In this document: positions 22,306 to 46,229 of the stretch, piece after piece
Position numbering within the stretch: the first letter of the stretch is position 1
Layout: every line of letters begins with the position of its first letter
Virus record (IMG/VR): IMGVR_UViG_3300032086_003047
Span: 1 to 58,949 of that record
Reading direction: 5' to 3' (one strand)
Source: a virus
Taxonomy: Duplodnaviria > Caudoviricetes
Length of the DNA: 58,949 nucleotides
Position numbers and translations under genes: made by a program
The notes under the pieces: generated by a model
Seen by the model: the letters and a program-made list of their open reading frames with translations, nothing else
Told to the model about the DNA's origin: nothing
Database searches by the model: none

Positions 22306-22337
22306 CTAATGTAGGACAATATTATAAACTTTCCAAA
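22306..22337 (-). promoter_or_regulatory. candidate Bacteroidota-type promoter for the small RNA
   Basis: Minus strand TTTG-N20-TACATTAG. Confidence 0.45.
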
Positions 22338-25300
22338 TATTTTGCAACATCATATGGAGTAAGTATTCTTTCCAGCTGACTTGAGTATGGTATTAGCTTT
22401 TTAACTGCTACGCCTACTTTGGTTTTACCTTTATGTTTACCACGTTCATACCTTTCATATTCCATCCAGTCTTCTCCAAAGTTAAATGCTGGACCAAATG
22501 AAGTCTTGAATGCTTTTCCTACTGCTTCTATAGTACTCATAGCAGCTGAAGGAGATCGTAGTATTTCCATTGCTGATCCTGGATTTCTGTAGAAAGATAT
22601 TTCTGAATCAAGCCTGTGCAGCTGGTATACTAACATTGATCTCATCCAATCATCTTCATCATCACCTTCAAGACTTCCTAAAAGTGTAAGTAATAATAGT
22701 ACTGCTCCACCTATTGCGAATTCAGCTACTGTCTTTTTGATCTGTGATTTTTTCCATGCGGGTAACTTATTCCAGTTTTCTTTAAGCATACCCATTGCAA
22801 GCCCATGCTGTTTTACCTGCTTAACGTATTCACTTAAAAATCTATAGGTTACTACATAGTATCCTCCAGTTTTAGCACCCAGTCTTTGGTTGTATACTTC
22901 TCTGTTATCAAAGGTATCTTTACCCCATCTTCTTTTCCATCCAGGCATTAGCCACTTACGGAATAAAACAAGAAGTCTTCCCATTGCTTTTTGCTGTAAT
23001 GCAGCTGCATCATTTTTAGAATAGTTACCGTGTAGATATTGATAGACACCTTTGATCCGTTCTGTAAACTTGATCATTTCATTTTTAGTAACTCCTTCTG
23101 TCCATGACACACCATCTTTTACACCTATAGATTCTCTTACTGTCTTATAGCTTTCTTCAAATTCTTTTTTGCTTGCCTTAGTATCTGGTTTACTTGGGTT
23201 AGCTTCTAACCAGTCCTGATAGCTCATTATCTTTCCTTTAACGATTCTATGACTACGTGCCATAGCTACAGCAACTTCAGTTTGTATCATGTGCTCTCCA
23301 GAGCTTTGCATAATAAAGGTTACCTTACCTGCCATACGTTTAATAAAAGACTTTGATGGTATTCTGTTACCGTACTGATCAAACTCTTGAAAGATATCAT
23401 ACGAGTCCATCCATATACTTAGGTCATTCTCTGGAAACTCTGATACTGCATCTTTTACAAATCCATATATGTTCTTAGCGTAATCTGCTTTAGCTTGTCG
23501 TAAATGTTTTCTTTCATAGAACTGTCCACCAGCTCCTTCGATCATGTTCATTACATTTGCTACAGATACGTTGTTGATACCTGAATACAAGTTAAATGCA
23601 AGTGATCGTATGGATGTATATTTACCAAGCAGGTCAAGAGTTTTTGCTTTGTCTAATGAGTCGAATAATAAGTTACCTTCATCTTTCTTTCGCTCACCAA
23701 ACATTTGCATGTCAAGATATGTTTTCAATTGCTTGTACGCATTACTTGTAATCCCTGCTTCAGTAACTTCTTTTCTTTCTTCACCACCTATTAGCTTACT
23801 GACGCCAGTCACCATTTTTTTAGTTCCTTTCTTTTGAGTAACTCTTCTTTCAGCTACAAGATCTTGAACTATCATTAGCTCTGTTGCGACGTCTCTCATT
23901 CCTGAATAGTTCTTAGACATAGTCATAAACATTTCTAAGCTTTCCATTAAGTTTAGAGATATGTCTTCTGGATTAAGACCTTTATCCTTTTCTCTACTTA
24001 TTGTTGAGGTGTATTTTATTGGAATGAATTTAAATTCTCTACCTTGCTCATCTGTAGTAACTTCTACATAATCTTTTTCATCTTCTCTTCTTTTTACTAA
24101 GTCTCCCAATGTTTTACCTGCAGCATTAACTGCTGATGAAACTCCTTTTACATCTTGAAATGCTCTTTCACTTCCTGATTTTAGAATTGCTGGTAGTTGG
24201 TATCGTCTTTGAAATCCTGGAGGTAAATTCTTTTGATGCTCTTGATAGTTTTCATGAAACAGATCATAAAATGCTTTTTGAGCAGCGGTTAATCTTTTGT
24301 ATTTGGGTGAATCTTTTTCTAGGTAGTTTCCAGTGAGCCTTCCTTTGTCATCACGCTCTAACATAAAGTCGTAAAACTTTTCATGGTTATTTGAAGAAGC
24401 AGATTGTGTTTTTTCGAGATCTTTAATTGCTTTCTTCATTTTGGTATTCCTAAAGGTTACCATTGCAAAGTTTATATCTGCTTTCTTCTTTTTTATAACC
24501 TTATCAACTAGAGCCAGTACTTGATCGTTTGAATCAGCTAAAGAATCTGCCAGGTATGTTATAAATCCAACATCATCATGTACATGAGTGAGCATTCGCT
24601 CAATATCTTTTTTAGAAAGATCTGCATCACTGTTATATTCATTTAAGAAATCAGCTATTAACGGACGAGATAGCCTAATGTATTTACCATTTAACATGTT
24701 TATACTTCCCATTACAGGATCTACAAACTCTTTTCTTAATGCTTCTTCACTTAAATTTAAATTTGCAAGAGCTTCTCTATCTTTTATTGCTTCAACTATA
24801 TCGGTTACCATGCTAAATACTGAAGTATAATCTTTAGCGTTAGCTAATCTTCTCAGTATTATTTTCTTTTCTTTTTTGGTTCCTTTTGAGTTTTTAATAG
24901 ATTGCTCAATATCCAACATTCCTCTATCAACTGTTTCAATTGCAGTTTTAGCGAATTCCATGAACTTGTGCAATACAAGTAGATTTCTTTCTGGATCACT
25001 TAGTGCAGCTATGTCTAATGGGTCATTTGTACGCTTAAGTCCCCCTCTGATTCTTTTAAGTTCTTTTATTTGACCAGATAATGTTTCAACAAGATCACCA
25101 CCTCTTTTCTTTTTGTCTTTTTTCTCTTCTTTTCTTTTTATGATTTCAAGCTTTTTCTCAAGAGATTGTATTGTTGTAATTGCAAGCTTTTCTAATTCTT
25201 CATCTCTTGTTATCTCTTCTTCGCTTTTATCTACTTCAAGTTCTATTTCTTCTGCCTCTTCTTCTTTTGTGACTAATGTAACTCCTCTACCTGCACTTGC

Positions 25301-25915
25301 AAAATGTGCAACACTTTCATCATTTATTGTTGCAATTACATCATCAAATAAAGAAGTATCGTCATCTGTAATGGTTCCATCTTCTGTTGTTTTTATATTC
25401 AAAAAGATTGGAACAGTCTTTCCTTTTTTAACTACTGGTAACGTACCTTCGTAATCTTCAGGTGTTTCGTATAGTCCTGCTTTGTCAAGATCTGTTGTGA
25501 ATGTATTTTCACCTATCTGATAAAAAAGCAAGGGTTCTCCTTGACTATTAACGGTCTTTGCTACTGAGTCATCTGATGGCAATACGAGCTCTACGGTAAA
25601 CTCATCTCCATCTTTAACTACTACAGCACTACCGTCTCCGTAAATATTATTGATTCTTTCTACTTCTGACTTTGCTGTTTCTTCTGTATATGAATCCTTT
25701 AATTCTTTTTTCTGAATAGCATCAAAGTTATAATACAGTCTAAAGTTTCCAAACTCAGCTTTGAACTCATCACTATTTATTTTAGTGTATGCAATATCAG
25801 CAAGGTCTTCTTTACCTAATATTAGATCTAGATCCTTATAGAGCTTACTGTCTTCTCTTACGATATTACCTTTATCGTCTAAAGTCTCTACTTGAAATTT
25901 ACATGATATTGCCAT
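22322..25915 (-). CDS. large virion ejection / RNAP-associated protein (1197 aa)
   Basis: Last of three giant genes; helical; C-terminal hydrophobic segment FAIGGAVLLLLTLLG; single Cys at residue 5. Confidence 0.7.
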   Translation of the reverse strand: MAISCKFQVETLDDKGNIVREDSKLYKDLDLILGKEDLADIAYTKINSDEFKAEFGNFRLYYNFDAIQKKELKDSYTEETAKSEVERINNIYGDGSAVVVKDGDEFTVELVLPSDDSVAKTVNSQGEPLLFYQIGENTFTTDLDKAGLYETPEDYEGTLPVVKKGKTVPIFLNIKTTEDGTITDDDTSLFDDVIATINDESVAHFASAGRGVTLVTKEEEAEEIELEVDKSEEEITRDEELEKLAITTIQSLEKKLEIIKRKEEKKDKKKRGGDLVETLSGQIKELKRIRGGLKRTNDPLDIAALSDPERNLLVLHKFMEFAKTAIETVDRGMLDIEQSIKNSKGTKKEKKIILRRLANAKDYTSVFSMVTDIVEAIKDREALANLNLSEEALRKEFVDPVMGSINMLNGKYIRLSRPLIADFLNEYNSDADLSKKDIERMLTHVHDDVGFITYLADSLADSNDQVLALVDKVIKKKKADINFAMVTFRNTKMKKAIKDLEKTQSASSNNHEKFYDFMLERDDKGRLTGNYLEKDSPKYKRLTAAQKAFYDLFHENYQEHQKNLPPGFQRRYQLPAILKSGSERAFQDVKGVSSAVNAAGKTLGDLVKRREDEKDYVEVTTDEQGREFKFIPIKYTSTISREKDKGLNPEDISLNLMESLEMFMTMSKNYSGMRDVATELMIVQDLVAERRVTQKKGTKKMVTGVSKLIGGEERKEVTEAGITSNAYKQLKTYLDMQMFGERKKDEGNLLFDSLDKAKTLDLLGKYTSIRSLAFNLYSGINNVSVANVMNMIEGAGGQFYERKHLRQAKADYAKNIYGFVKDAVSEFPENDLSIWMDSYDIFQEFDQYGNRIPSKSFIKRMAGKVTFIMQSSGEHMIQTEVAVAMARSHRIVKGKIMSYQDWLEANPSKPDTKASKKEFEESYKTVRESIGVKDGVSWTEGVTKNEMIKFTERIKGVYQYLHGNYSKNDAAALQQKAMGRLLVLFRKWLMPGWKRRWGKDTFDNREVYNQRLGAKTGGYYVVTYRFLSEYVKQVKQHGLAMGMLKENWNKLPAWKKSQIKKTVAEFAIGGAVLLLLTLLGSLEGDDEDDWMRSMLVYQLHRLDSEISFYRNPGSAMEILRSPSAAMSTIEAVGKAFKTSFGPAFNFGEDWMEYERYERGKHKGKTKVGVAVKKLIPYSSQLERILTPYDVAKYLESL

Positions 25916-25927
25916 TGCTAGTTATAT

Positions 25928-28900
25928 TTAAAATGCACAGATAAATCTTTGATCCTGTTCGTCGTTTCTATCTTTATTAGATGTTAGTTTGGCTTTATCT
26001 TCCAAAGTTTCAATATTGTATCTTTGGAATCTCCACATGTCATTTGTTTTACCTCCAGTTGTTTTATTGTAAAGTTTATATCTAGCATCAGTTGTTTCTC
26101 CACTTGCACTAGACCTTACTAAAAGAACAAATTTACCTTCACTCATAGTTTTAACAAACTTAGGAAATACTCCTAATTGTTTTTTAAATACGTATGGTAA
26201 ACTTATTGAGCCATTTTGTTTAAGTTTTTCCATTTCACTTTTCTTGACTCTTACCTTTCTGATCATAAACGGAGTTGCACTTCTATGAACAATGAAGTTT
26301 TCAATAAAATTATCAAAAAACTTTGGATCCTTAAAGTAATCAAATTGGAACTCTCGTATGTATTCATTGAATGAAATTGGGTCCTGTACTAAGTTTCCTT
26401 CTTCATCTTTTTTATACAGTAGAGACATTCCTGGATCATTCCATACTTCATTTGGAATTATATCAACAAATGCATTTACACCATTATCAAATCCTCTAGA
26501 TAATATGTGGTAGTATACAAGGTTTTTTGCAAACTCTCTTACTTTTTCATTTTCATGAGTTAACATGTTCAGGAACCCCTGAGTCATTGCATCCTTCTCT
26601 TCTTTACTATATGCAAAACTTGAATCAAATGATAATGTTTTGTGTTCGTATCTGTCAACTTCTTTTATTTCTTGATTTTTTTCTATTTGTTTAGGATCTG
26701 TTACTTTGGAAATATTATACAAGTGCATTGATTTCTTTTTCCCTTTAGCATCAAGTTTGCCTTCAATGAAATTCTTTACTCCTTTAGTTGCTCTATACTT
26801 ATTGCCTTTGCTGTCTTCTACAATGTAAACGCGATTTTTACCAATGAAATTTACAGTTCTATCTCTTCTTGTTAGTGGTACTATTTGTTTAGGATCTACT
26901 TTTTTTAGTGCCAGCTTAGTAATTATATCATCTATTTTTGATCTTCCTTCTTTAGCTTTTATTGTATCAATTGTTTGATTACCAGCATAAGTAACTTTAA
27001 AAAATGCATTACCTACTTTAATTGTTTTTTGACTATCTATATTTGCAAACTCACTAGATTTTTTTGTTTTTAAGAATAATGTTTTAGGTCGTTTGATATT
27101 TCTCATCATTCTTTTTTCAGCACTTGTTATATGAAAAGTCTTCTTAAGCATAGTTCTCAAACCTTCTGCTGTAATTGAACTAGTTTTATCCTTTAATGAA
27201 TTATCTTCATTTTCATCAAGTTTACTAAAGAACTTATACTCTGCTTTTCCAGGCGTAACCAGATTTCGTATAGGATCTGTTAGGTCTGATTCATTTATCT
27301 CAGCCAATAAATTTCTAAACTGTACAGCAATGTTATTGTCTCCAGTTAATAGCTTGTCTTCCCATTGTTTTGAGAATAATGGAGCAAACGGAGATGGTAC
27401 ATATCCTTCCTGCTTTTGACTTACTAGGTGCATGAAAGAATCTTTATTCACTGCTTTTAGTTGATCTAAAGATAACGTCTCAACTCCAAGCTCGCTGGCA
27501 AGAGCAGTTTTTGTTGCTTCTAAACCAAACTCAAAGTAAGGGAAGAACTTTGACACTAACACTTTAGCTGTACCTATCATGTTAATGTAGGAATTTGCTA
27601 TAGGATAATCTCCTTCAAGTATACTTGAGATGTCATCAATACCACGAGTAGGTATGTATTTAACATCTGTTTTCATTTCTATTTTACCTTGCGGTCTAAC
27701 TATTCCAGATATGTTTTTATACATGTCTGATTCAGAGACTCCATCTTCAGCTAGCTTACCTGAAATAATGTTGTAAAGAATATTTGGTATTGATTCCTCA
27801 AGTTCTTCTGCACTATTAAATGGATTTTTACCTTGTTTAATTTCTTCTAGTGTGGCTTTAGCATCTTTTCCGTTTGCAATTCTATCTTTTATTGAAGTCT
27901 CTTCTTTTGACAATAAAGGAATTGATGTAAATTCAGATGCAAGCAATAACTTGTTTTCTTTTTTATTTATCCAACCAGGGTATATTGAGTTTATGTATTT
28001 TTCAATTTCTTTTGAAAAAGTAGTTTGTTTAGTTTCTTCAACTGCTCTAAGTCTTTCTGTAATTACTTTTTTTCTTTCGAAGTAATCTATAAGATCAAGA
28101 TGTGCTTCAATACCTGCAGGATTATTAAAGTCTTTGATTCTGTCACTATTTATTAGCGTGTTTGCTTTACTTAAATCACCTGCTGTTTGAGTAAACATTT
28201 GTACAAATAAACCAAGTACGTTTAATTGTGTTTCGTTAAAGTTTGCATCTTTATTGTCTAATGTTTTATCAAAGTGCTCTAAAAGATTTTCACTATTAAT
28301 AGGTATATCGTCTCTTAAAAATTCATCAAGAGTTTTATATCCTCTACTTCGCATTCTACTACCCATCTCTGAAGTTAAAACACTTTCGGCAATTTGTACT
28401 AGTTTCCCAGGACTACCTTCTTTATCTATATACTCTTCATATAGTTTTCTGATTATTGGCTGGTTCATAAAAAATGAAGCCCATACAATTGAATCACCTT
28501 TAGCTGACTTAAAAAGCTCACTATATTCTTTTGTATCAATTCCCTTTTCCTTTAATATTTTTTTAAGATTATCTCCTTTCATGCTCTCATGTGTAATTCC
28601 TAAAGACATGATTGTATTACGTACACCAGACGTAAAACCATTATCCATTAGGAAAAGCATTATAGGATCTTTTGCATTATCTACAGATATAGTAAGATGT
28701 TGTTGTAGTTGATAGCTTATGTCATTACCTTCTTTATCTTCAGTAATTGTTAAATCATCATACTTATTGCCATCAATGATATAAGGAATTCCTATTTTAA
28801 TTTTTGTAAACTGTCTTCCTGCTTGAGCTGTAGTTGCAGTTGCATAAATACCCACACCAGTTTTACCAGCTTTATTTCTTTCTTCTAGTTTTCTTTCTGC

Positions 28901-31900
28901 ATCAACATCATTGGGATCAATTACAGTTGCATATTCAGGTATATTCGTTTTAAAGAACTTAGCTAGTTCAGGTGCAAGATTTGAATCAATAGTCTTAAGT
29001 ACTTCATCTATGTGATATGGGCTTGTAAGCATTGCGTGTGCCATATCTATATATGCATTTTCAAGACCTTTTTTAGTAGCACTCTTAAGATCATTTATAT
29101 CGTATTGTACTTTAGATATGGTCCAGTCTTTAAGATTATTAAGTGCTCTTAATGTTTTCTTTTTAGCCTGCATTGCTGCACTTTGTACTGCAGTTTCTTC
29201 ATCTGCATCTAAACCATCGATTTCAAGGTAATACTCAGTATCTTCAAGCAACAATGATATCTGCTTGTCTGTTAGCTTGATGTCTTTAGGTAAGTTCTTT
29301 AGTAGCTCACTTTTATAAGTATCAAACCAATCAAACTTTTGTCCATCTTTCAATGTACCTTTTACCTTTAGATTAGGTATCATTGTGAATAGTTTATCAA
29401 TATCAAAGTCAGATCCCATTTGAGTAGTGATCTCTGCAGGAACCATTATCATTTTTGACATTGATTTAGGAAGTATCTTAACTATCTTTAACGGTAGCAT
29501 CGAGTTCTTACCTTGTGTAGGTATACGATATCCGATAAGCGTTAATACATCTTCAGGTACTGAACTAATATCATACTCACCATCTTTATTTTTTGGTAGA
29601 TTAAGACGCTCTGCAAACTCCCAAGGCATGGCAATCTCTGCACTAACTATTTTTTGAATTTTTATCTTATCGCCTCTTCTTTCTTTTACAGTCCAGTATT
29701 CATTATTATATTGTACAATCTTTTCATAGAAAGTTTCTTTCCCTGTTGCATCATCTACATCTTTAACGACATTTTTTACAGCACTAGTACTTACTGTTTC
29801 TTCTTTTCCTTTTATAAATTGAAGTCCTTCAGCACCATCCTCATCTGTTTTGATCTTACCTATCTCTGCTATTTGCACAAGACCTTGTCCATTAATGTTG
29901 ATTTTCATAAAGCCTCTTTTGGCTATAGAAGAAAATACGCTTTGGAATTTTTCTGCAAATGCAGGCATAGATAACGGGCTATTGAAGTCATAATCTTTTT
30001 CATTACTTTCTTCAACCTTTACAATGTTTAATGCTTTGATGTATGTGTCAGGAAGTTCTCTTTCTTCTATTGAATTGTTAAACACTTTACGTATGCTGTT
30101 TAACATTTTTAATGTTTCACTATCGTTTTTAAATAGATTGTCTACATTGTATAAGCCTTCTTGATTTTTAGGTATACCTAATTCTTCAAATACTTTTCGT
30201 ACACCCATCTCAAGCTGTAGGTTTATTACTTCACCGTATTTTTCATAAAGCTGCTGACCAGTAATAACGTTATTGCCTACAACATATGGATTAGTTAGAT
30301 TCTTTTTTAGGTTCGTAGTTAGTAACTTCATGAACTGTGAACCTATTCGTGATTCTTTTGCAGTGTCTGGAATTATCTGAGGCATTCTTAAGAAATGTGT
30401 ATCCAGCTCTATTCCCTGCATTTTAGATAGTGACTCTACTGAAGGATTACCATCATTATCCAATTCGAGATCTATGGCGTTGTGCAATCCTGACTTTATT
30501 GCAGAATCCATATTTATCTCATGTATAGGATTAAGACCTTTACCTTTAAATTCACCTGATACTTCCATTCGCATTCTGATATTGTCGAATCCTGTACCCT
30601 TTGTAAATTCAGCAAGCAATGGAAAGGTTGAGTGCTTAACCATTATTCTTACTTTCTTTTTTACTCCATTGCCAAAATCCTTTAGGTACAATCCATCAGA
30701 ATATGTTTTTAATGGTTTAAGCTTTACTTGCTTTCCTTTGTTATCTACAAATCTTCCTCCGTTTGTTTGGTAATTAGCATATGCTTCTTTTTGTAGATCT
30801 CCCCATGTACCAATACCTTCAGCAATATGCTTGTACCTATCAAGTGTTACCAGCCCCATAGCATCTGCTACATTTGAACCTTGTTTATCGTTTCCTTCTT
30901 TGTATGCGTCTAATACACTTTTGTCAGTTACTATCTTATCAAGTGATTCTAGAAGCTCTTTGTTTTTTCTAAAAATATCATTGATCACACCCATCTGATA
31001 AGTTGGAGTATTACCATATGAGTCAGGTGTATCTTGTATCCTAGTTTCGATTCCAGGAGTAGCTAAACTACCGTATCGTTTACTTTGATCTTCTACAGTG
31101 TTTATTTGTTCTTCATTACTTTTAAGACTATCCTTATATAAACCTGGATCACCTGAAGTTAACTTTTGAATTTCATTTTTAAAGATCATTGTATTTACTA
31201 CATAATCTCGAATAAGCATGTTTACTTTTTCATTTCTGCTTGGGTTAGTTTCAGGATCATCATACAATTTGTTTAATGTCTCATCTGAAATGTTTTTACC
31301 AACTGATTTAAATTCTGAAGTTTTTTCTTCTATTTGATTTTTAACATACTTGTTTATTTCACTTTGTACTTCTCCCATTAACTTATCTATATCTTCAGAA
31401 GCATTTGTAAGCTGGACATCTGGATTGGCAAGAGCATATTCCATTAATTTTTTGCCTGCTTCTGTTTCATTTAGAAAAGGAAGTTGTCTAAAGAATTTAT
31501 AGTTTTTACTATAGTTCTTTATTTTGATTTTCATCTTTTCACCGTTCTGTGCGTCTTTTAGATCTTGTATTACATAACGCATGAAAATTGGATAATCTCC
31601 AATATTGTCAGTTAGTCTTCTGGTATCTGTAAAATTATATCCACTAGTGTTACTAAAATTATGACTTAGTCTAGGTAAGGTCATCATTATCATTCTACCT
31701 CTGTCTGCAAGAGTAGGTATGACAATAAGCATTTCATTTTTGTTACCATTGTTACCAAAAGCATTTAGTCTGTGAATTAGTGATAAGTTAGGACTTAGTG
31801 AATCAAATGTATTTTTACTTACAAACTCATTTCTCTTTTTGTATGCATCAAAATCTGATATCTCAATTGTATTTCTAAGTACATTTGATTGACTATTCAA

Positions 31901-34900: not shown

Positions 34901-34933
34901 AGGGGATAATACGTTTATACAACCTAATGCCAT
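25928..34933 (-). CDS. virion-packaged two-barrel DNA-dependent RNA polymerase (crAss-like, phi14:2 gp66-like) with N-terminal zincin domain
   Basis: GSDFDIDKL catalytic motif (nt 29396-29410), GYRIPTQG, VKHS; HEAFH (34115-34129) with downstream EERLAEQF. Confidence 0.9.
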   Translation of the reverse strand: MALGCINVLSPEFIDLKKQTGLNEHILAAKIKSWQDRNKRELDEFPASADELEITTLDYVPADTAVSIPTAEAKTAKPIKAFRTSKTKDGQKEYDLDKKPKGKPTEIELVIDPSRTLDITQAQESGIATNDMLVYEQILREAKYEYDYVTSDTYKQMSPMSPAEDIGAIVQRKALEKGYEGIIQYKSPYAPNVQAMRDKGRKYTKFGSLNPNQIDLDDAKQWLEARGLPFNMAEQTIEIAKGMPSGTEGLFSEGVIYLSKYATKGTEYHEAFHAVFRMFLTDEQQDAILAESKKQRPVSQEELDELEQAGYFRIGDDGKIYKNIDVKAKGKGEPTIITGEELERLVLEERLAEQFRSYVISNQKVKSTSEKIQKFFNDLLKYIKYYFSNKMTIDRLFFNIDKGRINKKNLNMRFASKGAAASFNRNDSKLYNRFDEGPIRNIVNDINSAFIKRSKQYPTDTPNQVYATIRRALRKGIFVKRVEKYDPVKKENKIVDERVTDSKTLQKHIDAITELMSDNLDMTEEAMQYMRTNNLLFTERANGTNIGNTLLLVDALWEDASAEYGNVKDRGILYKAKVGLQRFGYKVYGDEVTIYEDQDVAEKIYDKSHLEESRKDTLSKDIKEFLTFIPMLELEKDGNENVFRKKIGIFGNDVYYTFDEIYSNISFSLTESKSYDDMISKLEKKSKNFPEIKSVLNELKSKQKDEAFKSKFYAAMANTYNNFIGAIEEVLVDKEGNVAGVKVTYYNSNLNRAEKKLLKRWKNKSRSSDGTGLLINSDENETVANEEVLEKLNDSSEDSIGNVLMNYYKGPIQKDGKRERPFLKLSGIPTDEEIDAITDFANLLGMDIPRETFELAFNNGIIIDNKEVKGYDLFGYLTGGNSRIADPFKLPLYEEKTIGSPVATMIKEDSNGFIKDPYVEYLSVIKKFALVTSSFEKDIHGSFINAANKSVHPINTFTTLDRTISAIKTYDPTSTEFWDRWLREFKEDPLYMPSKGDKKNSEYDDLLASEILNSQSNVLRNTIEISDFDAYKKRNEFVSKNTFDSLSPNLSLIHRLNAFGNNGNKNEMLIVIPTLADRGRMIMMTLPRLSHNFSNTSGYNFTDTRRLTDNIGDYPIFMRYVIQDLKDAQNGEKMKIKIKNYSKNYKFFRQLPFLNETEAGKKLMEYALANPDVQLTNASEDIDKLMGEVQSEINKYVKNQIEEKTSEFKSVGKNISDETLNKLYDDPETNPSRNEKVNMLIRDYVVNTMIFKNEIQKLTSGDPGLYKDSLKSNEEQINTVEDQSKRYGSLATPGIETRIQDTPDSYGNTPTYQMGVINDIFRKNKELLESLDKIVTDKSVLDAYKEGNDKQGSNVADAMGLVTLDRYKHIAEGIGTWGDLQKEAYANYQTNGGRFVDNKGKQVKLKPLKTYSDGLYLKDFGNGVKKKVRIMVKHSTFPLLAEFTKGTGFDNIRMRMEVSGEFKGKGLNPIHEINMDSAIKSGLHNAIDLELDNDGNPSVESLSKMQGIELDTHFLRMPQIIPDTAKESRIGSQFMKLLTTNLKKNLTNPYVVGNNVITGQQLYEKYGEVINLQLEMGVRKVFEELGIPKNQEGLYNVDNLFKNDSETLKMLNSIRKVFNNSIEERELPDTYIKALNIVKVEESNEKDYDFNSPLSMPAFAEKFQSVFSSIAKRGFMKININGQGLVQIAEIGKIKTDEDGAEGLQFIKGKEETVSTSAVKNVVKDVDDATGKETFYEKIVQYNNEYWTVKERRGDKIKIQKIVSAEIAMPWEFAERLNLPKNKDGEYDISSVPEDVLTLIGYRIPTQGKNSMLPLKIVKILPKSMSKMIMVPAEITTQMGSDFDIDKLFTMIPNLKVKGTLKDGQKFDWFDTYKSELLKNLPKDIKLTDKQISLLLEDTEYYLEIDGLDADEETAVQSAAMQAKKKTLRALNNLKDWTISKVQYDINDLKSATKKGLENAYIDMAHAMLTSPYHIDEVLKTIDSNLAPELAKFFKTNIPEYATVIDPNDVDAERKLEERNKAGKTGVGIYATATTAQAGRQFTKIKIGIPYIIDGNKYDDLTITEDKEGNDISYQLQQHLTISVDNAKDPIMLFLMDNGFTSGVRNTIMSLGITHESMKGDNLKKILKEKGIDTKEYSELFKSAKGDSIVWASFFMNQPIIRKLYEEYIDKEGSPGKLVQIAESVLTSEMGSRMRSRGYKTLDEFLRDDIPINSENLLEHFDKTLDNKDANFNETQLNVLGLFVQMFTQTAGDLSKANTLINSDRIKDFNNPAGIEAHLDLIDYFERKKVITERLRAVEETKQTTFSKEIEKYINSIYPGWINKKENKLLLASEFTSIPLLSKEETSIKDRIANGKDAKATLEEIKQGKNPFNSAEELEESIPNILYNIISGKLAEDGVSESDMYKNISGIVRPQGKIEMKTDVKYIPTRGIDDISSILEGDYPIANSYINMIGTAKVLVSKFFPYFEFGLEATKTALASELGVETLSLDQLKAVNKDSFMHLVSQKQEGYVPSPFAPLFSKQWEDKLLTGDNNIAVQFRNLLAEINESDLTDPIRNLVTPGKAEYKFFSKLDENEDNSLKDKTSSITAEGLRTMLKKTFHITSAEKRMMRNIKRPKTLFLKTKKSSEFANIDSQKTIKVGNAFFKVTYAGNQTIDTIKAKEGRSKIDDIITKLALKKVDPKQIVPLTRRDRTVNFIGKNRVYIVEDSKGNKYRATKGVKNFIEGKLDAKGKKKSMHLYNISKVTDPKQIEKNQEIKEVDRYEHKTLSFDSSFAYSKEEKDAMTQGFLNMLTHENEKVREFAKNLVYYHILSRGFDNGVNAFVDIIPNEVWNDPGMSLLYKKDEEGNLVQDPISFNEYIREFQFDYFKDPKFFDNFIENFIVHRSATPFMIRKVRVKKSEMEKLKQNGSISLPYVFKKQLGVFPKFVKTMSEGKFVLLVRSSASGETTDARYKLYNKTTGGKTNDMWRFQRYNIETLEDKAKLTSNKDRNDEQDQRFICAF

Positions 34934-37900
34934 TAGTTACAATTTATAATGTTTTCTTTCTCTTTACGTGGAAGAGTTGCCCATTGAATAGGAGTTATTC
35001 CAAGCTGGAATATTGTTCTTCCAGTTCTAGTACGTGTAGTTTGATAAGGGTAATCCGTCTTAATTGGTTTTACTCTACTCAATTTCAATTTAAAGTTAGG
35101 ATTATTTGATGGACTGTTGTTCTTTACTAATGCTTTTTTTGCTGATGGATCATACAGATACAATGATCCATTAGTAGATACTCTTCCTTCTAGTCCAAAT
35201 ACTTTAGCTTCATTTTTAAACTGCTGTGTTATTTGTGATACCTTTCCTGGTTTCATCGAGCTAAACCCTGATAGTTGAATATTGAATTTGTTAAGGAACA
35301 TATTGAATCTTCCTAGAGGTGACATTGAAGGTATGCCTCCTATAGTTCCAAGTGGATCCGTAGATGCCTGTACATCTGGGAACATGTCAAAGTCGTCCTT
35401 GTCTTCATCAATCTCTTCTTTCTCAGCAACTTCTTTCTCAACTTTGGAATCTTCTTCTTGAAATCTTTGTTCTCCGATTTCAATTTGTAGTTGTGAATCA
35501 TAGAAATAATTTCCTCCATCTGATGGCTGGACATCGGTTTGTAGAATGGATCCTCCTGCAAATTCTGTGTTTTCATTTCCGTTTATATCTGGTCTTCCAA
35601 TTAAGTAGTCGTTATAAGTATTGTATTCTTTATTCGTAATAGGACTTGTGTATTGTGTACCTGCTTTTGTATTTAACTTATCTCCTTGAACGTTGTATTT
35701 CTTATTTGCTATAATTTTAGAAATTATGGCTAAAGGTGAAATTCCATTAAAATCATTAGCTAAAATTTGATCTATTGTAACAGAATCATCTACTGTAATT
35801 TTTTGGTTTCCTACTGGTCCTTCAATTTTCTTTCTTGCAATATTAGGTCGTTCTTTATTTAATTCTGATATGTTTAAAGAGTAGATCTTTTTATTATGTA
35901 TGAATTGAATGTATGGTTGATTAGTTTTTGTATTTAATAGTATCTGAATAACAGGATCAATTGTTTTTGTTTTTTCATCAGTACTTATTAATAGATCCAT
36001 TTTCTCTATTAGTTCATCATTTGAATATTGAACGTAAATGATTTCCTGTATACGTTTTAAATCTTTTTCTGTAAACTTTTCACTTGTTAATAAACCTGTT
36101 ATAGTTTCTTGTGCATTAAGATCTATGTTAGAAGTTGATAGTTTTACAGGAACATAATCTCCATTACCATTTAATACGAATCCATATATCTGTCCAGCTT
36201 GTCCAGAATCAACTTTTGTATTCTTAGCTGCAGTTTCTAGTAATACATCTGCCGCAGGAACATTTAGTGTAGGAGCTGCTTCTTTTGGTCTTGTTACATA
36301 TCCAAACTTAAACTCTATGTCTTCATTTTTACGCAGTACAATGTTACCAGAGTCATCGTATTGATACATTGCTTTCCATCTATCTGCTATAGGTTTAAGT
36401 ACAGATTTAGCAGGGCGAATTATTTGCTGATCCCAATCTAAATCCATTGCTTCACGATCTTTTACTGTTCTAAGGTTAGGACCACGATTAAATCCTACTA
36501 GGGTTCCATTATCATTAAGTGTAAGATTACCTACCGTATATCCACTTTTGTTATTGTTTTTCCAGTTATCGTATATTGCTTTACGAATGTTACGTTCTTC
36601 TTCTTCAAGTAGACTAGCTAGACCTGTTTCTATTACTCCTACAGCTTCTTTTTCACCATTTTCATTTTCAAGATATACTATTATTGGAATCGTTAAAAAG
36701 TACCCTGTTTCAGATTTATATTCGTTTTTTATATACTTTTTTGTAAACCAATCATTTTCAAGAGGCTGTAGATATAGTTTACCTCCTTCTTTTATTAGAT
36801 TAGGATTTGCTAGCAAGTCATCATTAATTTCTACTCCTATTGATTCTTTTCGTATTGGGTTATCATTTGAGTCAAAATCTAAAACTATTTGAGTTGCAGT
36901 GGCAAGAGTTCGATATAAATATGTTGATGTTGATATACTTCCATCAACTCTATCTGTGTTCTGTTGAGTAGATCTTGATCTTCTACTATCTTCTGCAGGC
37001 TCAGTACTTTCTAGTTCAAATGATGGTTCAGTATCTTCAACTTCCAATGTAGAAGGAGGAACATCAGTAGTACCTGTAAAGACAGCACTTCTTTTTCTTT
37101 CTATTTCAACATCTCCAATTTCAACATCTTCATCTATTAATACAGTAGATTCTCTTTTAAGTTTTTCTTCTGCTTCTAGTTGAGCTTTAATTGCTTCATC
37201 TTTTATTGTAGCAAATTCTGTTTTTACTTTACTTATAAAGTCTTTGATTCTTATAATATCAGCTTCTAGTTGATCTCTTTCTTCAGCATTTAGTGATGAC
37301 TCAGTAGCACCTTCCATTGGTGTAACAGTCTCAAATGTATTTATTTCATCACCCTCTACTACAGCTACAGTTTCCACTGTACCTCTAACCTCATCTGGAA
37401 TTATTATACTTCCATCTTCAGCTACTCCTTCTTTAAGAACATTAGCACTACCTGCAAGCTCTTGTTGTTTTTCATTCAATAGTCCTTCTAGATCCTCAAT
37501 AGATTGAGCATCTTTAAGTTCTTCAGTTAGTTTTGATGCACTTGGTTCAATGTCCTCAAATACTTTACTGATAGCTTTAGTCTGGAGTTCAGCGTCTGAT
37601 ATATCTGGATCAGTAAATTGATCTGTTATTTCTTCCTCTGTTTTAGGATTTTTCGTACTCTCTCTCTTGGGTTTAGTTTCATCAGGTTTCTTTTTGTCTG
37701 TTGGTCCTCCAGGAGGTTCAGTAGGTACGTCTTCGGTGTCTGTGACTTCTTCATTTTGTTCTTTTAATATCCATTTATTAGTTCCTTTAATTGCATATCT
37801 GGATTTTTCTGCTAGTTCAGCTTTACGTTGCTCATCTTCTTTTTGTTGTTGTCTTTCTTGACTAATTTTTTCTAATGTTGCTGTTCTTTCAGCTTCAGAT

Positions 37901-40900
37901 ATATTTGGATCTTCTAATCTCTTCTGTAGTTTTACTATTTCATTCTCTCTATTTTTTACGCTTATTCCACGAGTATCTCCAGTTCTTAATGCGTATTCTT
38001 CTTTTGTTTCTCCTTTTCGTTTTGCTAATGGTCCTTCTCCTCTTTCTATATACTCACGTACAGTTTCTCTTTCTTTTTGAATTCTTGGAGCAAACTCTAC
38101 ATCGCCTTCAGTATATCCTACAATATCTTTAGCTAACTGTTCTCTGAATTGACCAGTAATTTCATTTAAGATACGACCTTTTTTATTATGACTCCCGTCT
38201 TTATTGTAAATGTTTCTTTTACCTGGCAATACTTCTTCGGTCATAAGTATCTCACCTTTCTCATCCCGCAAAACTTCAAATACTTTAGATTGCATTGGAT
38301 TAGTTGCATTAAAGTCTACCTGATACTCTTTACCACCTGACGTAAATGTTTGGTCTTTACCTAAGAATTGTTCTATTGCCAGTTGATATACAAGTAACAT
38401 ATCAGCTACTTCATACATTAAAATCTCACCAGTTATTTCAACTTCTTCGCCTTTACCATTAATAAGTGTTACAGATTTTAGATTACCTGCCTCATCATAG
38501 TTTAATGATTCTTGCGGCATGGTTCCAATATGACTGAGCTCACTATCACCTATCCATATACTTGCATTATCACCTGATAAACCAAAGCTAGTATAATTTT
38601 CAGCAGTAGAAATTGATGCTATGATTTCACCAGTTTCTTCATCTTTTACTAACTTCTTTTTACCGTTTATTACAAAGTCTACAGGAAAATATGAATCTTT
38701 TAATACACCTAGATTTAGATTTGATACAGTGTCTTCAAGACTACCGCTGACTATGAATTCTTCACCAGAGCTTGATGATTGGAATACTAGTTCAGCTGTA
38801 TCATCACTTTTGTATAGTATTCCTCTTTCACCATTATGGAATACTGGAAGCACATCTGTATTCTTAAAGAATAGCTCTCCTAGCGGAGTATCATCATATG
38901 CATGATCTATCATTGCATATTGATCATATGCTAATGCTACTTCTGTAGCAATCTCTTTAGTTATCCTACCTTTTGCTGCAGCATTTAATCTCTTTATTTT
39001 ATTTAGCCTCTTATTCTCTAATTCTTGTAATGCTTTTGCTTTTCTTGCTTCTTGTCTTTGGAATCTGGATATACCGTCTCTTACGACTGTTTCCATTTCC
39101 TCAATCATCTTAGCAATATTCTCTCTATCCTTTTCATCAGTAGTTCTTGCTAAGATCTCTTTAGCCTCATCGATTGCAGCCTGCTTTTCTTTAGGTGTGA
39201 GCTCTACTTCATATCGTTGAGTTAGTTCTTCTGCATTTTCCCAATCTTCAGATTCTTCTTTTATAGGTTTACCATCTTCATCAAAACCTATTGTTTTACG
39301 CTTACCTAATATTTCTTCTTTAGCACCTTTGTATATCTGAGTGTATAGATCCTGTACTCGTCTAAAGTCTTCTCTTCCTTTGTCAAGATTAGCTTTATGT
39401 TTTGCAGCTTCTTTTATTATCTCACGGTTAGTAAGCTTATTAAGCCTCATAATATGAGCATCTATGAGCTGATCTTGCCAAGATAATTTTTCCATATTAG
39501 AAACTGTTTCACCTATGATTGCATCATTGTTCAACAGCTTTAATATTTCTTTATCTGAATCAGGTAACGTAATACTATCATCGGATTCAATTGCACTTAC
39601 TTCTGCATTTCCTGCAGCAATAATTGCTTCTTGTTGATTTATGTATTCCTGAATTCTTTCTTTTTGCTCTTCTGTAAGTTTTCTGCTTTTATCAGCTAAT
39701 ATCTTCTTTGCATGCTCTACACCTTTCTCTGCAGACTTTATTTTTAGTTTTGCATCAAATACATTTCTACCATCAGCACTTAACTCATTGTATCTGTGGA
39801 TACTATTTCTATCCTCATTTATTTGATTGATTAATTTACCTCGATCATTATCAAGTTTTGATATGATAAATTTACTTTGAACAACTTGTGGTAGTATAGA
39901 TGGATCAAATCTTCTATTGTTCTTATTCCATATTGTTTCTATTGCTTTAGCATCAGATATTAATCGATCTATATTTTCAGTGAATGTTTCATCAACACCC
40001 ATTTTTTCTCTTGTCTCAGCATCTGCAGTTTTTAATCCTTCAAGTTGTTTTATATAGTGTCCAAGATTTTCTTCTCTTGCTGCAGTTACTGCCATGTCAG
40101 TTGATGCATCAAGCATAGCTTGTTCATATACATCAGGTAGTCCACTTTCTGCTGCAGCTCTTAATTTCTTATTATGGTATGCAAACTTAGCTCCTCTTTC
40201 TTCAAGTTCTTTTATTCTACTGTCTTCTGTTGTTTTACCTCGTATTTTATCAAATACTGGTTTTGTTCCCTGCATTACTCCTGCACCTATAGCACCAAAG
40301 AAACCTGATGTCCAGAATTCACCATCACTTACATACTCTCCAAACCTTGATGTGAAGTTACTATCTTCAGCAATTCCAGCCATTACATCACCGAAATGCA
40401 TAGCTTCTTCACCTATAACAAACTGATAAGCTTCTTCACCAAATTCACTTGCCATATCTGCTATATATCTTCCAGCAGATTGCATTGCACCTTTTGTTCC
40501 TGATTCACCTGCAGCAAGCATTTGTGCACGACCATTAAAAGCTTTTGTTGCTTTCATTCCTCTACCTAGTAGAAAATATTGAGGAATATCTTGCAGAAGC
40601 ATTATTGAATTACCTCTGTATGAAAATGCTGCAGCTTCTGATGCGGCTAATTTTGCTTTTAACTCATCACCAGTTTCAGCAAGTACTTTATCATATTCTT
40701 CTTTGTATACTCCAGACGCTTCCATATTTGATTCAATATGTCTGGAAACAATACCTTGGTGTACAGCATTTAAAGCTCTACTTCTTGTTGCTTGATCATA
40801 GATCTTAGAAAACTTATTTCTATATGCCATTCCTGCTCTTACAGCATCATCTATATTATTAAGACCGCCAAGTCCTTTTGCAGCCTTACCTGCTCTTGCT

Positions 40901-41568
40901 GTATAGTTTAGTGCTCTTACTCCTTTTGCAGCAGCTGCACCTAATTTTCCTGCCATCCCAACACCTCTTGCCCATCCAGCTACAGGAATCATAATTGATA
41001 CAGCACTCGCTACAGATGGTGTATTAGAAAACCACCATTCAGTAGACCATGGTGCAAATTTACCTTCTGTTTCAGGATCAACATGTATAGGTGTAACCTC
41101 TCTTGTCCAATCTTTAATTGCTGTACCTACATTAGAAAACCAATTACCTTCCCCAAAAGTACCATCAGTCATGGATTGAAAATCAAGTAAGTACCCTATA
41201 CCTTCAATTGTACCACCTACTATTTCTGCTGCAGCTTGTGTAATTGCTCCACCAATTTCTCCTGCCAGTCCTTGTTCTTCAGCTTTTTGTTTTGCTAGAC
41301 TTATTTCATGATTCTTTTGAGCAATTTTATACATTTCCTGAAAGTCAGGTCTATCAGGTCTAAAATCTGTACCCATTATCTCCCTACCTTTAAAAGGGTC
41401 TAATGTGTAAGTTTTAGTTTCAATAAAATCATCATTGGGAGCTGACAGCTTTCTTGATTTCTCGAATAGATCAAGTCGTGAACCAGATTTTGGCTCAGAG
41501 TCATCGCCTGCTACTTCATTGGAATCCAGTAACTCATCGTTATCTATAACTTCTTCTTCGTCTGCCAT
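34933..41568 (-). CDS. giant virion ejection protein (2211 aa)
   Basis: N-terminal Gly/Ala-rich amphipathic region, coiled coils; TAATG-coupled to the RNAP gene; only Cys is penultimate. Confidence 0.7.
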   Translation of the reverse strand: MADEEEVIDNDELLDSNEVAGDDSEPKSGSRLDLFEKSRKLSAPNDDFIETKTYTLDPFKGREIMGTDFRPDRPDFQEMYKIAQKNHEISLAKQKAEEQGLAGEIGGAITQAAAEIVGGTIEGIGYLLDFQSMTDGTFGEGNWFSNVGTAIKDWTREVTPIHVDPETEGKFAPWSTEWWFSNTPSVASAVSIMIPVAGWARGVGMAGKLGAAAAKGVRALNYTARAGKAAKGLGGLNNIDDAVRAGMAYRNKFSKIYDQATRSRALNAVHQGIVSRHIESNMEASGVYKEEYDKVLAETGDELKAKLAASEAAAFSYRGNSIMLLQDIPQYFLLGRGMKATKAFNGRAQMLAAGESGTKGAMQSAGRYIADMASEFGEEAYQFVIGEEAMHFGDVMAGIAEDSNFTSRFGEYVSDGEFWTSGFFGAIGAGVMQGTKPVFDKIRGKTTEDSRIKELEERGAKFAYHNKKLRAAAESGLPDVYEQAMLDASTDMAVTAAREENLGHYIKQLEGLKTADAETREKMGVDETFTENIDRLISDAKAIETIWNKNNRRFDPSILPQVVQSKFIISKLDNDRGKLINQINEDRNSIHRYNELSADGRNVFDAKLKIKSAEKGVEHAKKILADKSRKLTEEQKERIQEYINQQEAIIAAGNAEVSAIESDDSITLPDSDKEILKLLNNDAIIGETVSNMEKLSWQDQLIDAHIMRLNKLTNREIIKEAAKHKANLDKGREDFRRVQDLYTQIYKGAKEEILGKRKTIGFDEDGKPIKEESEDWENAEELTQRYEVELTPKEKQAAIDEAKEILARTTDEKDRENIAKMIEEMETVVRDGISRFQRQEARKAKALQELENKRLNKIKRLNAAAKGRITKEIATEVALAYDQYAMIDHAYDDTPLGELFFKNTDVLPVFHNGERGILYKSDDTAELVFQSSSSGEEFIVSGSLEDTVSNLNLGVLKDSYFPVDFVINGKKKLVKDEETGEIIASISTAENYTSFGLSGDNASIWIGDSELSHIGTMPQESLNYDEAGNLKSVTLINGKGEEVEITGEILMYEVADMLLVYQLAIEQFLGKDQTFTSGGKEYQVDFNATNPMQSKVFEVLRDEKGEILMTEEVLPGKRNIYNKDGSHNKKGRILNEITGQFREQLAKDIVGYTEGDVEFAPRIQKERETVREYIERGEGPLAKRKGETKEEYALRTGDTRGISVKNRENEIVKLQKRLEDPNISEAERTATLEKISQERQQQKEDEQRKAELAEKSRYAIKGTNKWILKEQNEEVTDTEDVPTEPPGGPTDKKKPDETKPKRESTKNPKTEEEITDQFTDPDISDAELQTKAISKVFEDIEPSASKLTEELKDAQSIEDLEGLLNEKQQELAGSANVLKEGVAEDGSIIIPDEVRGTVETVAVVEGDEINTFETVTPMEGATESSLNAEERDQLEADIIRIKDFISKVKTEFATIKDEAIKAQLEAEEKLKRESTVLIDEDVEIGDVEIERKRSAVFTGTTDVPPSTLEVEDTEPSFELESTEPAEDSRRSRSTQQNTDRVDGSISTSTYLYRTLATATQIVLDFDSNDNPIRKESIGVEINDDLLANPNLIKEGGKLYLQPLENDWFTKKYIKNEYKSETGYFLTIPIIVYLENENGEKEAVGVIETGLASLLEEEERNIRKAIYDNWKNNNKSGYTVGNLTLNDNGTLVGFNRGPNLRTVKDREAMDLDWDQQIIRPAKSVLKPIADRWKAMYQYDDSGNIVLRKNEDIEFKFGYVTRPKEAAPTLNVPAADVLLETAAKNTKVDSGQAGQIYGFVLNGNGDYVPVKLSTSNIDLNAQETITGLLTSEKFTEKDLKRIQEIIYVQYSNDELIEKMDLLISTDEKTKTIDPVIQILLNTKTNQPYIQFIHNKKIYSLNISELNKERPNIARKKIEGPVGNQKITVDDSVTIDQILANDFNGISPLAIISKIIANKKYNVQGDKLNTKAGTQYTSPITNKEYNTYNDYLIGRPDINGNENTEFAGGSILQTDVQPSDGGNYFYDSQLQIEIGEQRFQEEDSKVEKEVAEKEEIDEDKDDFDMFPDVQASTDPLGTIGGIPSMSPLGRFNMFLNKFNIQLSGFSSMKPGKVSQITQQFKNEAKVFGLEGRVSTNGSLYLYDPSAKKALVKNNSPSNNPNFKLKLSRVKPIKTDYPYQTTRTRTGRTIFQLGITPIQWATLPRKEKENIINCN

Positions 41569-44544: not shown

Positions 44545-44553
44545 GACTAGTTG

Positions 44554-46227: not shown

Positions 46228-46229
46228 AA

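Follow-up and report, generated by a model that had tools for sequence, protein, structure and literature searches.

Why should the giant cargo proteins of a phage, almost devoid of cysteine (Cys), carry a Cys at precisely those ends where one gene gives way to the next? The question is raised by IMG/VR virus record IMGVR_UViG_3300032086_003047 (Duplodnaviria; Caudoviricetes), a stretch of 58,949 nucleotides (positions 1 to 58,949 of the record) that is called the window below. Six consecutive open reading frames (ORFs) on its minus strand encode, in gene order, cargo proteins of 901, 557, 988, 2211, 3001 and 1197 amino acids (aa). The last three, here called A, B and C, make up a virion RNA polymerase (RNAP) module, and we use the term break for a point where this module splits into separate genes. 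Comparison with other Crassvirales shows that a Cys flanking each protein-level break on either side is maintained by selection, which removes Cys elsewhere. The features of the module in the window are as follows.

34933-41568, minus strand: gene A, a cargo protein of 2211 aa with which the virion RNAP module begins; an ORF with one Cys
34939-34941, minus strand: codon of Cys2210 in A, the second residue from the C-terminus (..IINCN, then stop)
25928-34933, minus strand: gene B, 3001-aa virion RNA polymerase; two Cys, both terminal
34919-34921, minus strand: codon of Cys5 in B (MALGC)
34115-34129, minus strand: HEAFH motif (HExxH, zincin-like), B residues 269-273
29396-29410, minus strand: DFDID catalytic motif of the RNAP, B residues 1842-1846
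25937-25939, minus strand: codon of Cys2999 in B, the third residue from the C-terminus (..FICAF, then stop); invariant in alignments A3 and A4
22322-25915, minus strand: gene C, 1197-aa RNAP-associated protein; an ORF with one Cys
25901-25903, minus strand: codon of Cys5 in C (MAISC); invariant in 14 of 14 homologues

A script count found four Cys in total among the 8,855 aa of the six cargo proteins, at residue 2210 of 2211 in A, residues 5 and 2999 of 3001 in B and residue 5 in C. The initial annotation had arrived at the same four by eye; the recount agrees, with no additional internal Cys, and all four codon positions given there are exact. The count also bears out its observation that the first protein of the trio has no N-terminal Cys and the last no C-terminal Cys. 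The stop codon of A and the start codon of B share one base (TAATG). The remaining ORFs of the window contain 0.5-2.5% Cys. As background, 171 ORFs outside the module, taken from the window and related loci, have a frequency of 0.906%, so that about 80 Cys would be expected in 8,855 aa, compared with the 4 observed. If four Cys were placed at random, the probability that all fell within the four 5-residue junction windows would be ~2.6e-11, and within any of the 12 terminal windows ~2e-9.

The window belongs to Crassvirales, to judge from a tblastn search of C against phage records that matched 87 records, all of this group; the matching genes are annotated as RNA-polymerase subunit or RNAP-associated protein (crAss001 gp49, phi14:2 g065). 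A megablast search of the region against phage records gave no match. B matches the solved structure of the phi14:2 RNAP, gp66 (6vr4_A; phmmer E 2.2e-20, query residues 1790-2139), a profile derived from B covers residues 32-2124 of phi14:2 g066, and the DFDxD motif of the gp66 RNAP named in preprint 10.1101/2020.03.07.982082 is present in B as DFDID. Homologues of A and C flank B within a block of tail and cargo genes. Judged by these matches, A, B and C are the counterparts of crAss001 gp47, gp50 and gp49 and of phi14:2 gp67, gp66 and gp65. These counterparts are present in virions (PMC10172136), and the preprint reports that the three proteins enter the host and that they form a single polyprotein in some phages; packaging and delivery into the host are described for phi14:2 and crAss001 only (PMC10172136; 10.1101/2020.03.07.982082). 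Scans of the cargo proteins against PHROGs and Pfam gave only one 50-residue PHROG of unknown function and two sub-threshold Pfam matches.

The terminal Cys are conserved far beyond the window. A word-indexed search found 14 homologues of C, with identities as low as 22%; each has a Cys at residue 3-5, which in 10 of the proteins is the only one. A Cys at position -1 to -3 was present in 16 of 17 homologues of A. In phi14:2, g067 ends in ..NTIC, g066 reads MAC....QECK and g065 starts with MSC, and the three proteins are otherwise free of Cys over 5,398 residues. In crAss001, gp47 ends in ..LRCNS, gp50 reads MSKRC....ICGANTLYEL and gp49 starts with MAKKC. Here gp47 lies on the opposite strand and does not adjoin gp50, yet its terminal Cys is kept. 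Thus, the pattern is a property of the proteins and not a signal in the DNA of the junction.

For a wider survey, profiles of A, B and C were taken through three rounds of hidden Markov model search. We mapped 305 proteins (P0001-P0296 plus those of the window, crAss001 and phi14:2), clustered them at ≥60% identity into 228 clusters and kept the longest member of each as representative. The module occurs in the architectures A/B/C, A+B/C, A/B+C, A+B1/B2/C and A+B+C, where a slash marks a break and a plus sign a fusion. A C-terminal Cys was scored in the last 12 residues and an N-terminal Cys in residues 2-10. A C-end was assigned to a break if the protein ends in A or B and to the chain if it ends in the C module; an N-end was assigned to a break if the protein starts in B or C and to the chain if it starts with A or a long A-like extension. 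The N-terminal counts leave out five representatives that do not start with M.

C-end at a break: terminal Cys in 59 of 61 representatives (Fisher p 7e-53 versus C-ends of the chain)
C-end of the chain: terminal Cys in 0 of 167
N-end at a break: terminal Cys in 155 of 173 representatives (Fisher p 6e-35 versus N-ends of the chain)
N-end of the chain: terminal Cys in 0 of 50

The result is insensitive to the size of the terminal windows. Among the background ORFs, 21 of 171 have a C-terminal Cys and 9 of 171 an N-terminal one. In the interior of the module Cys is nearly absent: the 228 representatives contain 148 in 527,649 residues (0.028%, versus 0.906% in the background), and 165 of them contain none. 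Fully fused representatives, of which there are 18 (4,432-6,953 aa), never have a terminal Cys, and 13 have no Cys whatever. From these counts, the presence of a terminal Cys at breaks is a family-wide rule in Crassvirales.

The two sides of a break were then compared within single genomes. Pairing was read on the DNA in 22 lineages, 14 of them from records of named phages and 8 from viral or metagenome contigs, with TAG read as Q in cr4_1 and cr113_1, and a Cys was found on both sides in 32 of 32 protein-level breaks, among them breaks at non-homologous positions and that of crAss001, in which A and B do not adjoin. At the other extreme, five loci (L007-L011) have one ORF that stays open for >4,195 residues, spans A, B and C and contains no Cys. 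The orthologue comparison proposed in the initial annotation thus came out in its favour. Wherever a piece has a C-terminal Cys, the piece that follows has an N-terminal one, and this also applies to genomes with other splits or fusions of the genes; where a junction is fused, both Cys are missing, as an interpretation in terms of terminal pairs predicts. Partner Cys are present together (32 of 32 paired breaks) and lost together (none of the 18 fused proteins has a terminal Cys). The module genes of cr4_1 and cr113_1 are open only if TAG encodes a residue, which points to stop-codon recoding; the two genes contain 38+18 in-frame TAG codons in cr4_1 (L022 2960-21848) and 73+38 in cr113_1 (L026 4650-21794), and the Cys rule holds there too.

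Breaks have arisen at different places. The conserved GT-x-YHEAFHAVF motif lies at residue 269 of B in the window and at residue 2156 of the 2341-residue gp47, the A protein, in crAss001, which indicates that the break between A and B occurred at different positions in the two lineages. A further locus (L014) has no A/B break; the interruption of its module falls within the RNAP instead, near profile position 1600, where ..VHCK and a stop are followed directly by MSINC. In a FastTree tree of the RNAP core, built from 74 of the 79 representatives that contain B (five with partial coverage were dropped), we counted at least 11 changes in the state of the B/C break and 12 in the C-terminal Cys. 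Among contrasts on supported branches, Cys changed in the same direction as the break in 9 of 9 independent cases (sign test p ~0.004). The A/B break changed at least 11 times, with 6-7 of 8 contrasts in the same direction and none in the opposite one (p 0.016-0.03). FastTree support values need caution; the contrast counts are independent of any single branch. The tree indicates that break and Cys evolved together repeatedly and independently, a Cys pair appearing when a break arises and vanishing when pieces fuse.

Another type of gene interruption comes without a Cys pair. The RNAP ORF of cr116_1, bajarodcaudo virus 1 and the P0111 group reaches its stop a few codons past DFD; an endonuclease gene comes next, and then an ORF whose start, MVDK.., lacks a Cys. 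Joining ..DFD to VDK.. restores the motif as DFDVD. In bajarodcaudo virus 1 (L029), the intervening DNA on the two sides of the endonuclease gene scored 47 bits (E 1.3e-10) and 32 bits (E 3e-6) against RF00028, for which the gathering score is 50; at the gathering threshold there was no match. On the strength of these sub-threshold matches and the restored motif, we rejected the idea that the interruptions of DFDxD are protein breaks without a pair and regard them as group I introns. An interruption at the RNA level leaves the protein continuous, so no Cys pair is expected. The intron with its endonuclease lies within DFDxD at L029 12186-13079 (bajarodcaudo virus 1), at L023 14751-15590 (cr116_1) and in P0111-P0134. 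At such introns gene callers give two ORFs and a false C-terminus (..VKVKLC, ..VEIKMC or ..LSMLK before the stop).

The Cys lie very close to the ends. On the N side they are at residue 3, 4 or 5 in 142 of 155 representatives, and on the C side at -1 or -2 in 42 of 59; the median stub is three residues ahead of the N-side Cys (range 2-7) and one residue past the C-side Cys (range 0-13). C-ends at breaks are acidic, with D+E making up 20% of the last 30 residues versus 11% at the ends of the chain, and often close with K-x-C-K. Stand-alone C proteins (P0152-P0296) often start with M-x(1-3)-C-P-N-[KI]-[NS]-x-P-[DE]-W-K-x-L, a motif that is lacking at the N-terminus of window C (MAISCKFQ) and was not found at the junctions when fused proteins were searched for it. 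Sequence logos show no other conserved residue of ligand type near the terminal Cys. An AlphaFold2 model of window C is of moderate confidence (mean predicted local distance difference test score (pLDDT) 60.5). Its residues 1-4 score under 50, whereas the N-terminal domain is fairly confident and has its first strand at residues 8-12, an arrangement that would place Cys5 at the flexible edge of this domain. A complex prediction for residues 2560-3001 of B with residues 1-450 of C, folded without alignments, had a score of 0.00 and speaks neither for nor against binding.

What could the pairs be for? The explanation that we favour, and that we judge to be just on the probable side, is that disulfides take the place of the peptide bond and tether A, B and C end to end, in a chain that is threaded in order and released by reduction. 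A, B and C would be pieces of one ancestral giant virion RNAP protein; a single-protein module of 4,400-7,000 aa persists in some Crassvirales. At each break the upstream piece ends in a Cys, usually one that closes an acidic tail, and the downstream piece starts with a Cys at residue 3-5; in the finished virion the two would form an intermolecular disulfide, giving A-SS-B-SS-C. This nearly unbranched chain would be carried in one piece and driven through the tail, its members in fixed order and in a 1:1:1 ratio, and would come apart when the host cytoplasm reduces the disulfides. For crAss001, where PMC10172136 gives masses of 262.5, 276.9 and 154.5 kDa for gp47, gp50 and gp49, such a chain would amount to ~694 kDa. 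The remaining Cys would have been eliminated, a trend shared with other ejected phage proteins, to prevent wrong pairs.

A disulfide would be the simplest chemistry, given two Cys, no other conserved ligand, variable spacing and the disulfides elsewhere in crAss001 virions, which PMC10172136 describes at the tail and the portal vertex. Because the cytoplasm is reducing, the bond would exist only in the finished particle and would act at ejection, not at packaging. The short stubs would fit a chain that passes through a narrow channel, and constrictions of <50 Å lie along the path in crAss001 (PMC10172136). The initial annotation had proposed the same Cys-linked chain. What the comparison shows is the tie between terminal Cys and breaks, its repeated independent evolution and the depletion of Cys, in support of the view that the pairs stand in for continuity in the order A-B-C; a bond between the two Cys of a break, its disulfide nature, its timing, and its purpose in threading and reductive release are what we infer.

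Three further cargo genes lie next to the module.

41578-48935, minus strand: the three genes together, without any Cys
41578-44544, minus strand: 988-aa cargo gene, no Cys
44554-46227, minus strand: 557-aa cargo gene, no Cys
46230-48935, minus strand: 901-aa cargo gene, no Cys

Having no Cys, their products would stand outside the tethered chain.

Several observations weigh against the tether or the rule on which it builds. (i) There are two C-side exceptions, P0068, with a Cys at -14, and P0151, which consists of A only and has its sole Cys 62 residues from the end. (ii) On the N side, 18 of 173 break ends have no Cys; 17 of these proteins are wholly free of Cys and one has a single interior Cys. 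All 18 look like truncated calls of Cys-free fused proteins, and most begin inside the profile, as such calls would. (iii) There is possibly an extra break near position ~760 of the B profile with a downstream piece that lacks an N-terminal Cys. In IAS virus (L018 6540-6600), the bases are ambiguous over the stretch where gp055 ends in ..LILCNGD and gp056 starts, in a different frame, with MVTDK..; P0020, which begins with MDIPRE.. at profile position 758, has no N-terminal Cys, and a search for its contig gave unrelated weak matches only. (iv) Many interior Cys are tolerated in IAS virus, cr116_1 and P0067, a relaxed depletion that the strict logic of avoided mispairing does not predict. (v) Two N-ends among the 32 paired breaks depend on start codons that we moved. 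The annotated start of crAss002 gp33 (L021 17243-17341) puts the Cys at residue 35 and a start at Met33 gives MSC; that of the C gene of bajarodcaudo virus 1 (L029 15823-15876) overlaps the upstream gene, and the first ATG past the stop of that gene gives MAKSC. Both annotated starts are probably too far upstream, and the moved ones give an N-terminus of the kind usual in the family. (vi) The bond itself is proposed from sequence, the cytoplasm in which A, B and C are synthesised is reducing, and the gut that many of the hosts inhabit is anoxic, so that a disulfide could form only late, if at all.

This last point is where a different kind of link gains ground. If the two Cys of a break shared a metal ion (Zn, Cu or Fe) or were joined covalently by an enzyme in some other way, the link would also work in the reducing cytoplasm before packaging and would avoid the oxidation of thiols there or in the anoxic gut. 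The comparative evidence fits such a link equally well, since it says that the pair matters and not what type of bond it makes, and in some tails a His stands beside the Cys (..NHCKGK, ..VHCK, ..IHCIKS). Lineages with a single break, however, have only two Cys and no other conserved residue of ligand type. Nor is there a fixed spacing between Cys and terminus (3-8 on the N side, -1 to -14 on the C side), as would be expected of a flexible tether more than of a defined metal site. To our knowledge, no modifying enzyme is linked to the module, which counts against an enzyme-made link, and we regard this class of explanations as unlikely. The presence of only two Cys in one-break lineages also led us to reject, as a general model, a single Zn(Cys)4 site formed by all four termini. 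About equally improbable, in our view, is that each terminal Cys acts alone, as the mark of a free end that binds a third partner (capsid, portal or membrane) or is chemically modified. That the N-terminal Cys of C-type proteins sits within the conserved C-P-N motif, much like part of a recognition element, is in keeping with this; true ends of the chain are free as well, yet they have a Cys in 0 of 50 cases at the N-end of A and 0 of 167 at the C-end of C, and the two Cys of a break come and go together. Modification of the lipoprotein type can be set aside on geometry. Lipobox lipoproteins have a signal peptide of ~15-25 residues before the Cys, and with the Cys at residue 3-5 in 142 of 155 representatives only 2-4 residues precede it, which leaves no room for one.

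Bonds between like proteins, A to A, C to C or B in chains or rings, could instead build multimers of several copies per virion. A protein with a single Cys can homodimerise, and virions have room for ~6 copies of each RNAP-associated protein (Bayfield et al., PMC10172136). Such bonds leave unexplained why both Cys are lost upon fusion and why Cys occur at break ends only, and we think them quite improbable. Rejoining of the pieces by split inteins was rejected from the lengths of the stubs. The halves of a split intein occupy ~100 and ~35 residues at the junction; the stubs here measure 2-7 and 0-13 residues, and a Pfam scan of A, B and C found no intein family. Hardly any credence is due to chance, an annotation artefact or a constraint on the DNA at gene junctions, such as overlapping stop and start codons or ribosome loading. 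The junctions in the window and in L003 do read ..CN-stop-M..C with the overlapping TAATG, and a signal made of these elements and a short palindrome was considered. It was rejected because the Cys are kept on non-adjacent, opposite-strand genes, as with A and B in genomes of the crAss001 type. Junction sequences, spacing and Cys codon contexts vary by lineage, with the Cys kept to 22% identity, and p values below 1e-34 speak against chance or artefact. As far as sequence data allow, this group of explanations is refuted.

Other features of the module vary among its relatives. In close relatives of the window (70-77% identity; L001 and P0016, P0017 and P0019) the RNAP is ~3,680 aa long, versus 3,001 aa for window B, and also starts with MALGC; over the region compared (32700-34933), the first 72 residues of window B are unaligned to the L001 relative, whose ORF extends further there. 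The gp66 preprint puts a zincin-like domain in gp65, the C piece, and none was seen in window C. Helicase-type Pfam domains (PF13538, PF05970, PF13604 and PF13245) are precomputed on the A homologues P0143-P0145 and on P0027, which suggests that the cargo chain can bear extra enzymatic domains.

Part of this picture was known. Avoidance of Cys has been described for N4-like ejected proteins (PMC11445570), and the splitting and fusion of the crassvirus RNAP in preprint 10.1101/2020.03.07.982082, which assumes cleavage of the fused form. The module studied here is that of phi14:2 and crAss001, with the same A, B and C proteins, the DFDxD motif and the match to gp66 (6vr4); the Cys rule, for which the comparative support is strong, is a new property of it, and so is the proposed way of joining proteins. 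The word cysteine does not occur in PMC10172136, the gp66 preprint or PMC13434306, and the disulfide passages in PMC10172136 concern the tail and gp57 only. A literature search, which left most subscription journals and supplements outside, yielded no paper that links terminal Cys or disulfides to the crassvirus RNAP proteins; the supplements and extended-data tables of PMC10172136, on virion mass spectrometry with and without reduction, may bear on the claim.

The nearest parallel is in Schitoviridae, which likewise have a giant virion RNAP and co-ejected proteins with a Cys frequency far below that of the proteome. Their ejected proteins (virion RNAP gp50/gp71, with gp51/gp72 and gp52/gp73) are nearly Cys-free, which has been explained by passage through the periplasm (PMC11445570), and the same source backs the statement in the initial annotation that the N4 virion RNAP is free of Cys. 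The N4-type enzyme differs in being one chain of a different polymerase family (PMC13434306) that is reported without terminal Cys; crassvirus pieces, unlike N4-type proteins, keep exactly the Cys that flank breaks. The few Cys in gp72 homologues are described as located either where conservation is lacking or close to the termini of predictions that seem truncated (PMC11445570). By analogy, those near ends may mark real split proteins and thus the same phenomenon. Inter-subunit disulfides occur within particles of this phage order, in the crAss001 gp57 dimer and in tail hub and ring proteins (PMC10172136). These were seen by cryo-electron microscopy (cryo-EM) between fixed, folded subunits, whereas the proposed bonds would join flexible ends of cargo that the maps do not resolve. 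Split inteins, which have no room for their halves here, likewise restore the continuity of a protein encoded by two genes with a Cys at the junction. Two-chain toxins are held together by one interchain disulfide that is reduced upon entry into the cytosol. As in the tether proposed here, a disulfide holds the parts together during translocation and is cut in a reducing compartment; the toxins, however, arise by nicking of a single precursor and their chains lie side by side, whereas the crassvirus pieces come from separate genes, would be joined end to end and have no sequence relation to them.

For practical purposes, the Cys rule helps annotation, in that it points to correct start codons, tells true breaks from introns and exposes truncated calls. 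No other phages are as abundant in the human gut as Crassvirales. For how their three huge RNAP proteins, which the cryo-EM atlas of crAss001 does not resolve, are packed, kept in ratio and passed through the tail, the rule of a Cys on either side of every protein-level break and none elsewhere offers a concrete hypothesis. In its broadest form, to which we give a little less than an even chance, the module would be a disulfide-stitched pseudo-polyprotein of up to ~700 kDa in which S-S serves as a reversible substitute for the peptide bond, perhaps in other phages as well. Fission and fusion of the genes would then be nearly neutral, which would account for the 11 or more changes at each junction. 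The rule thus explains how the module could split and fuse freely in evolution, and it extends the Cys avoidance of ejected phage proteins by a functional exception.

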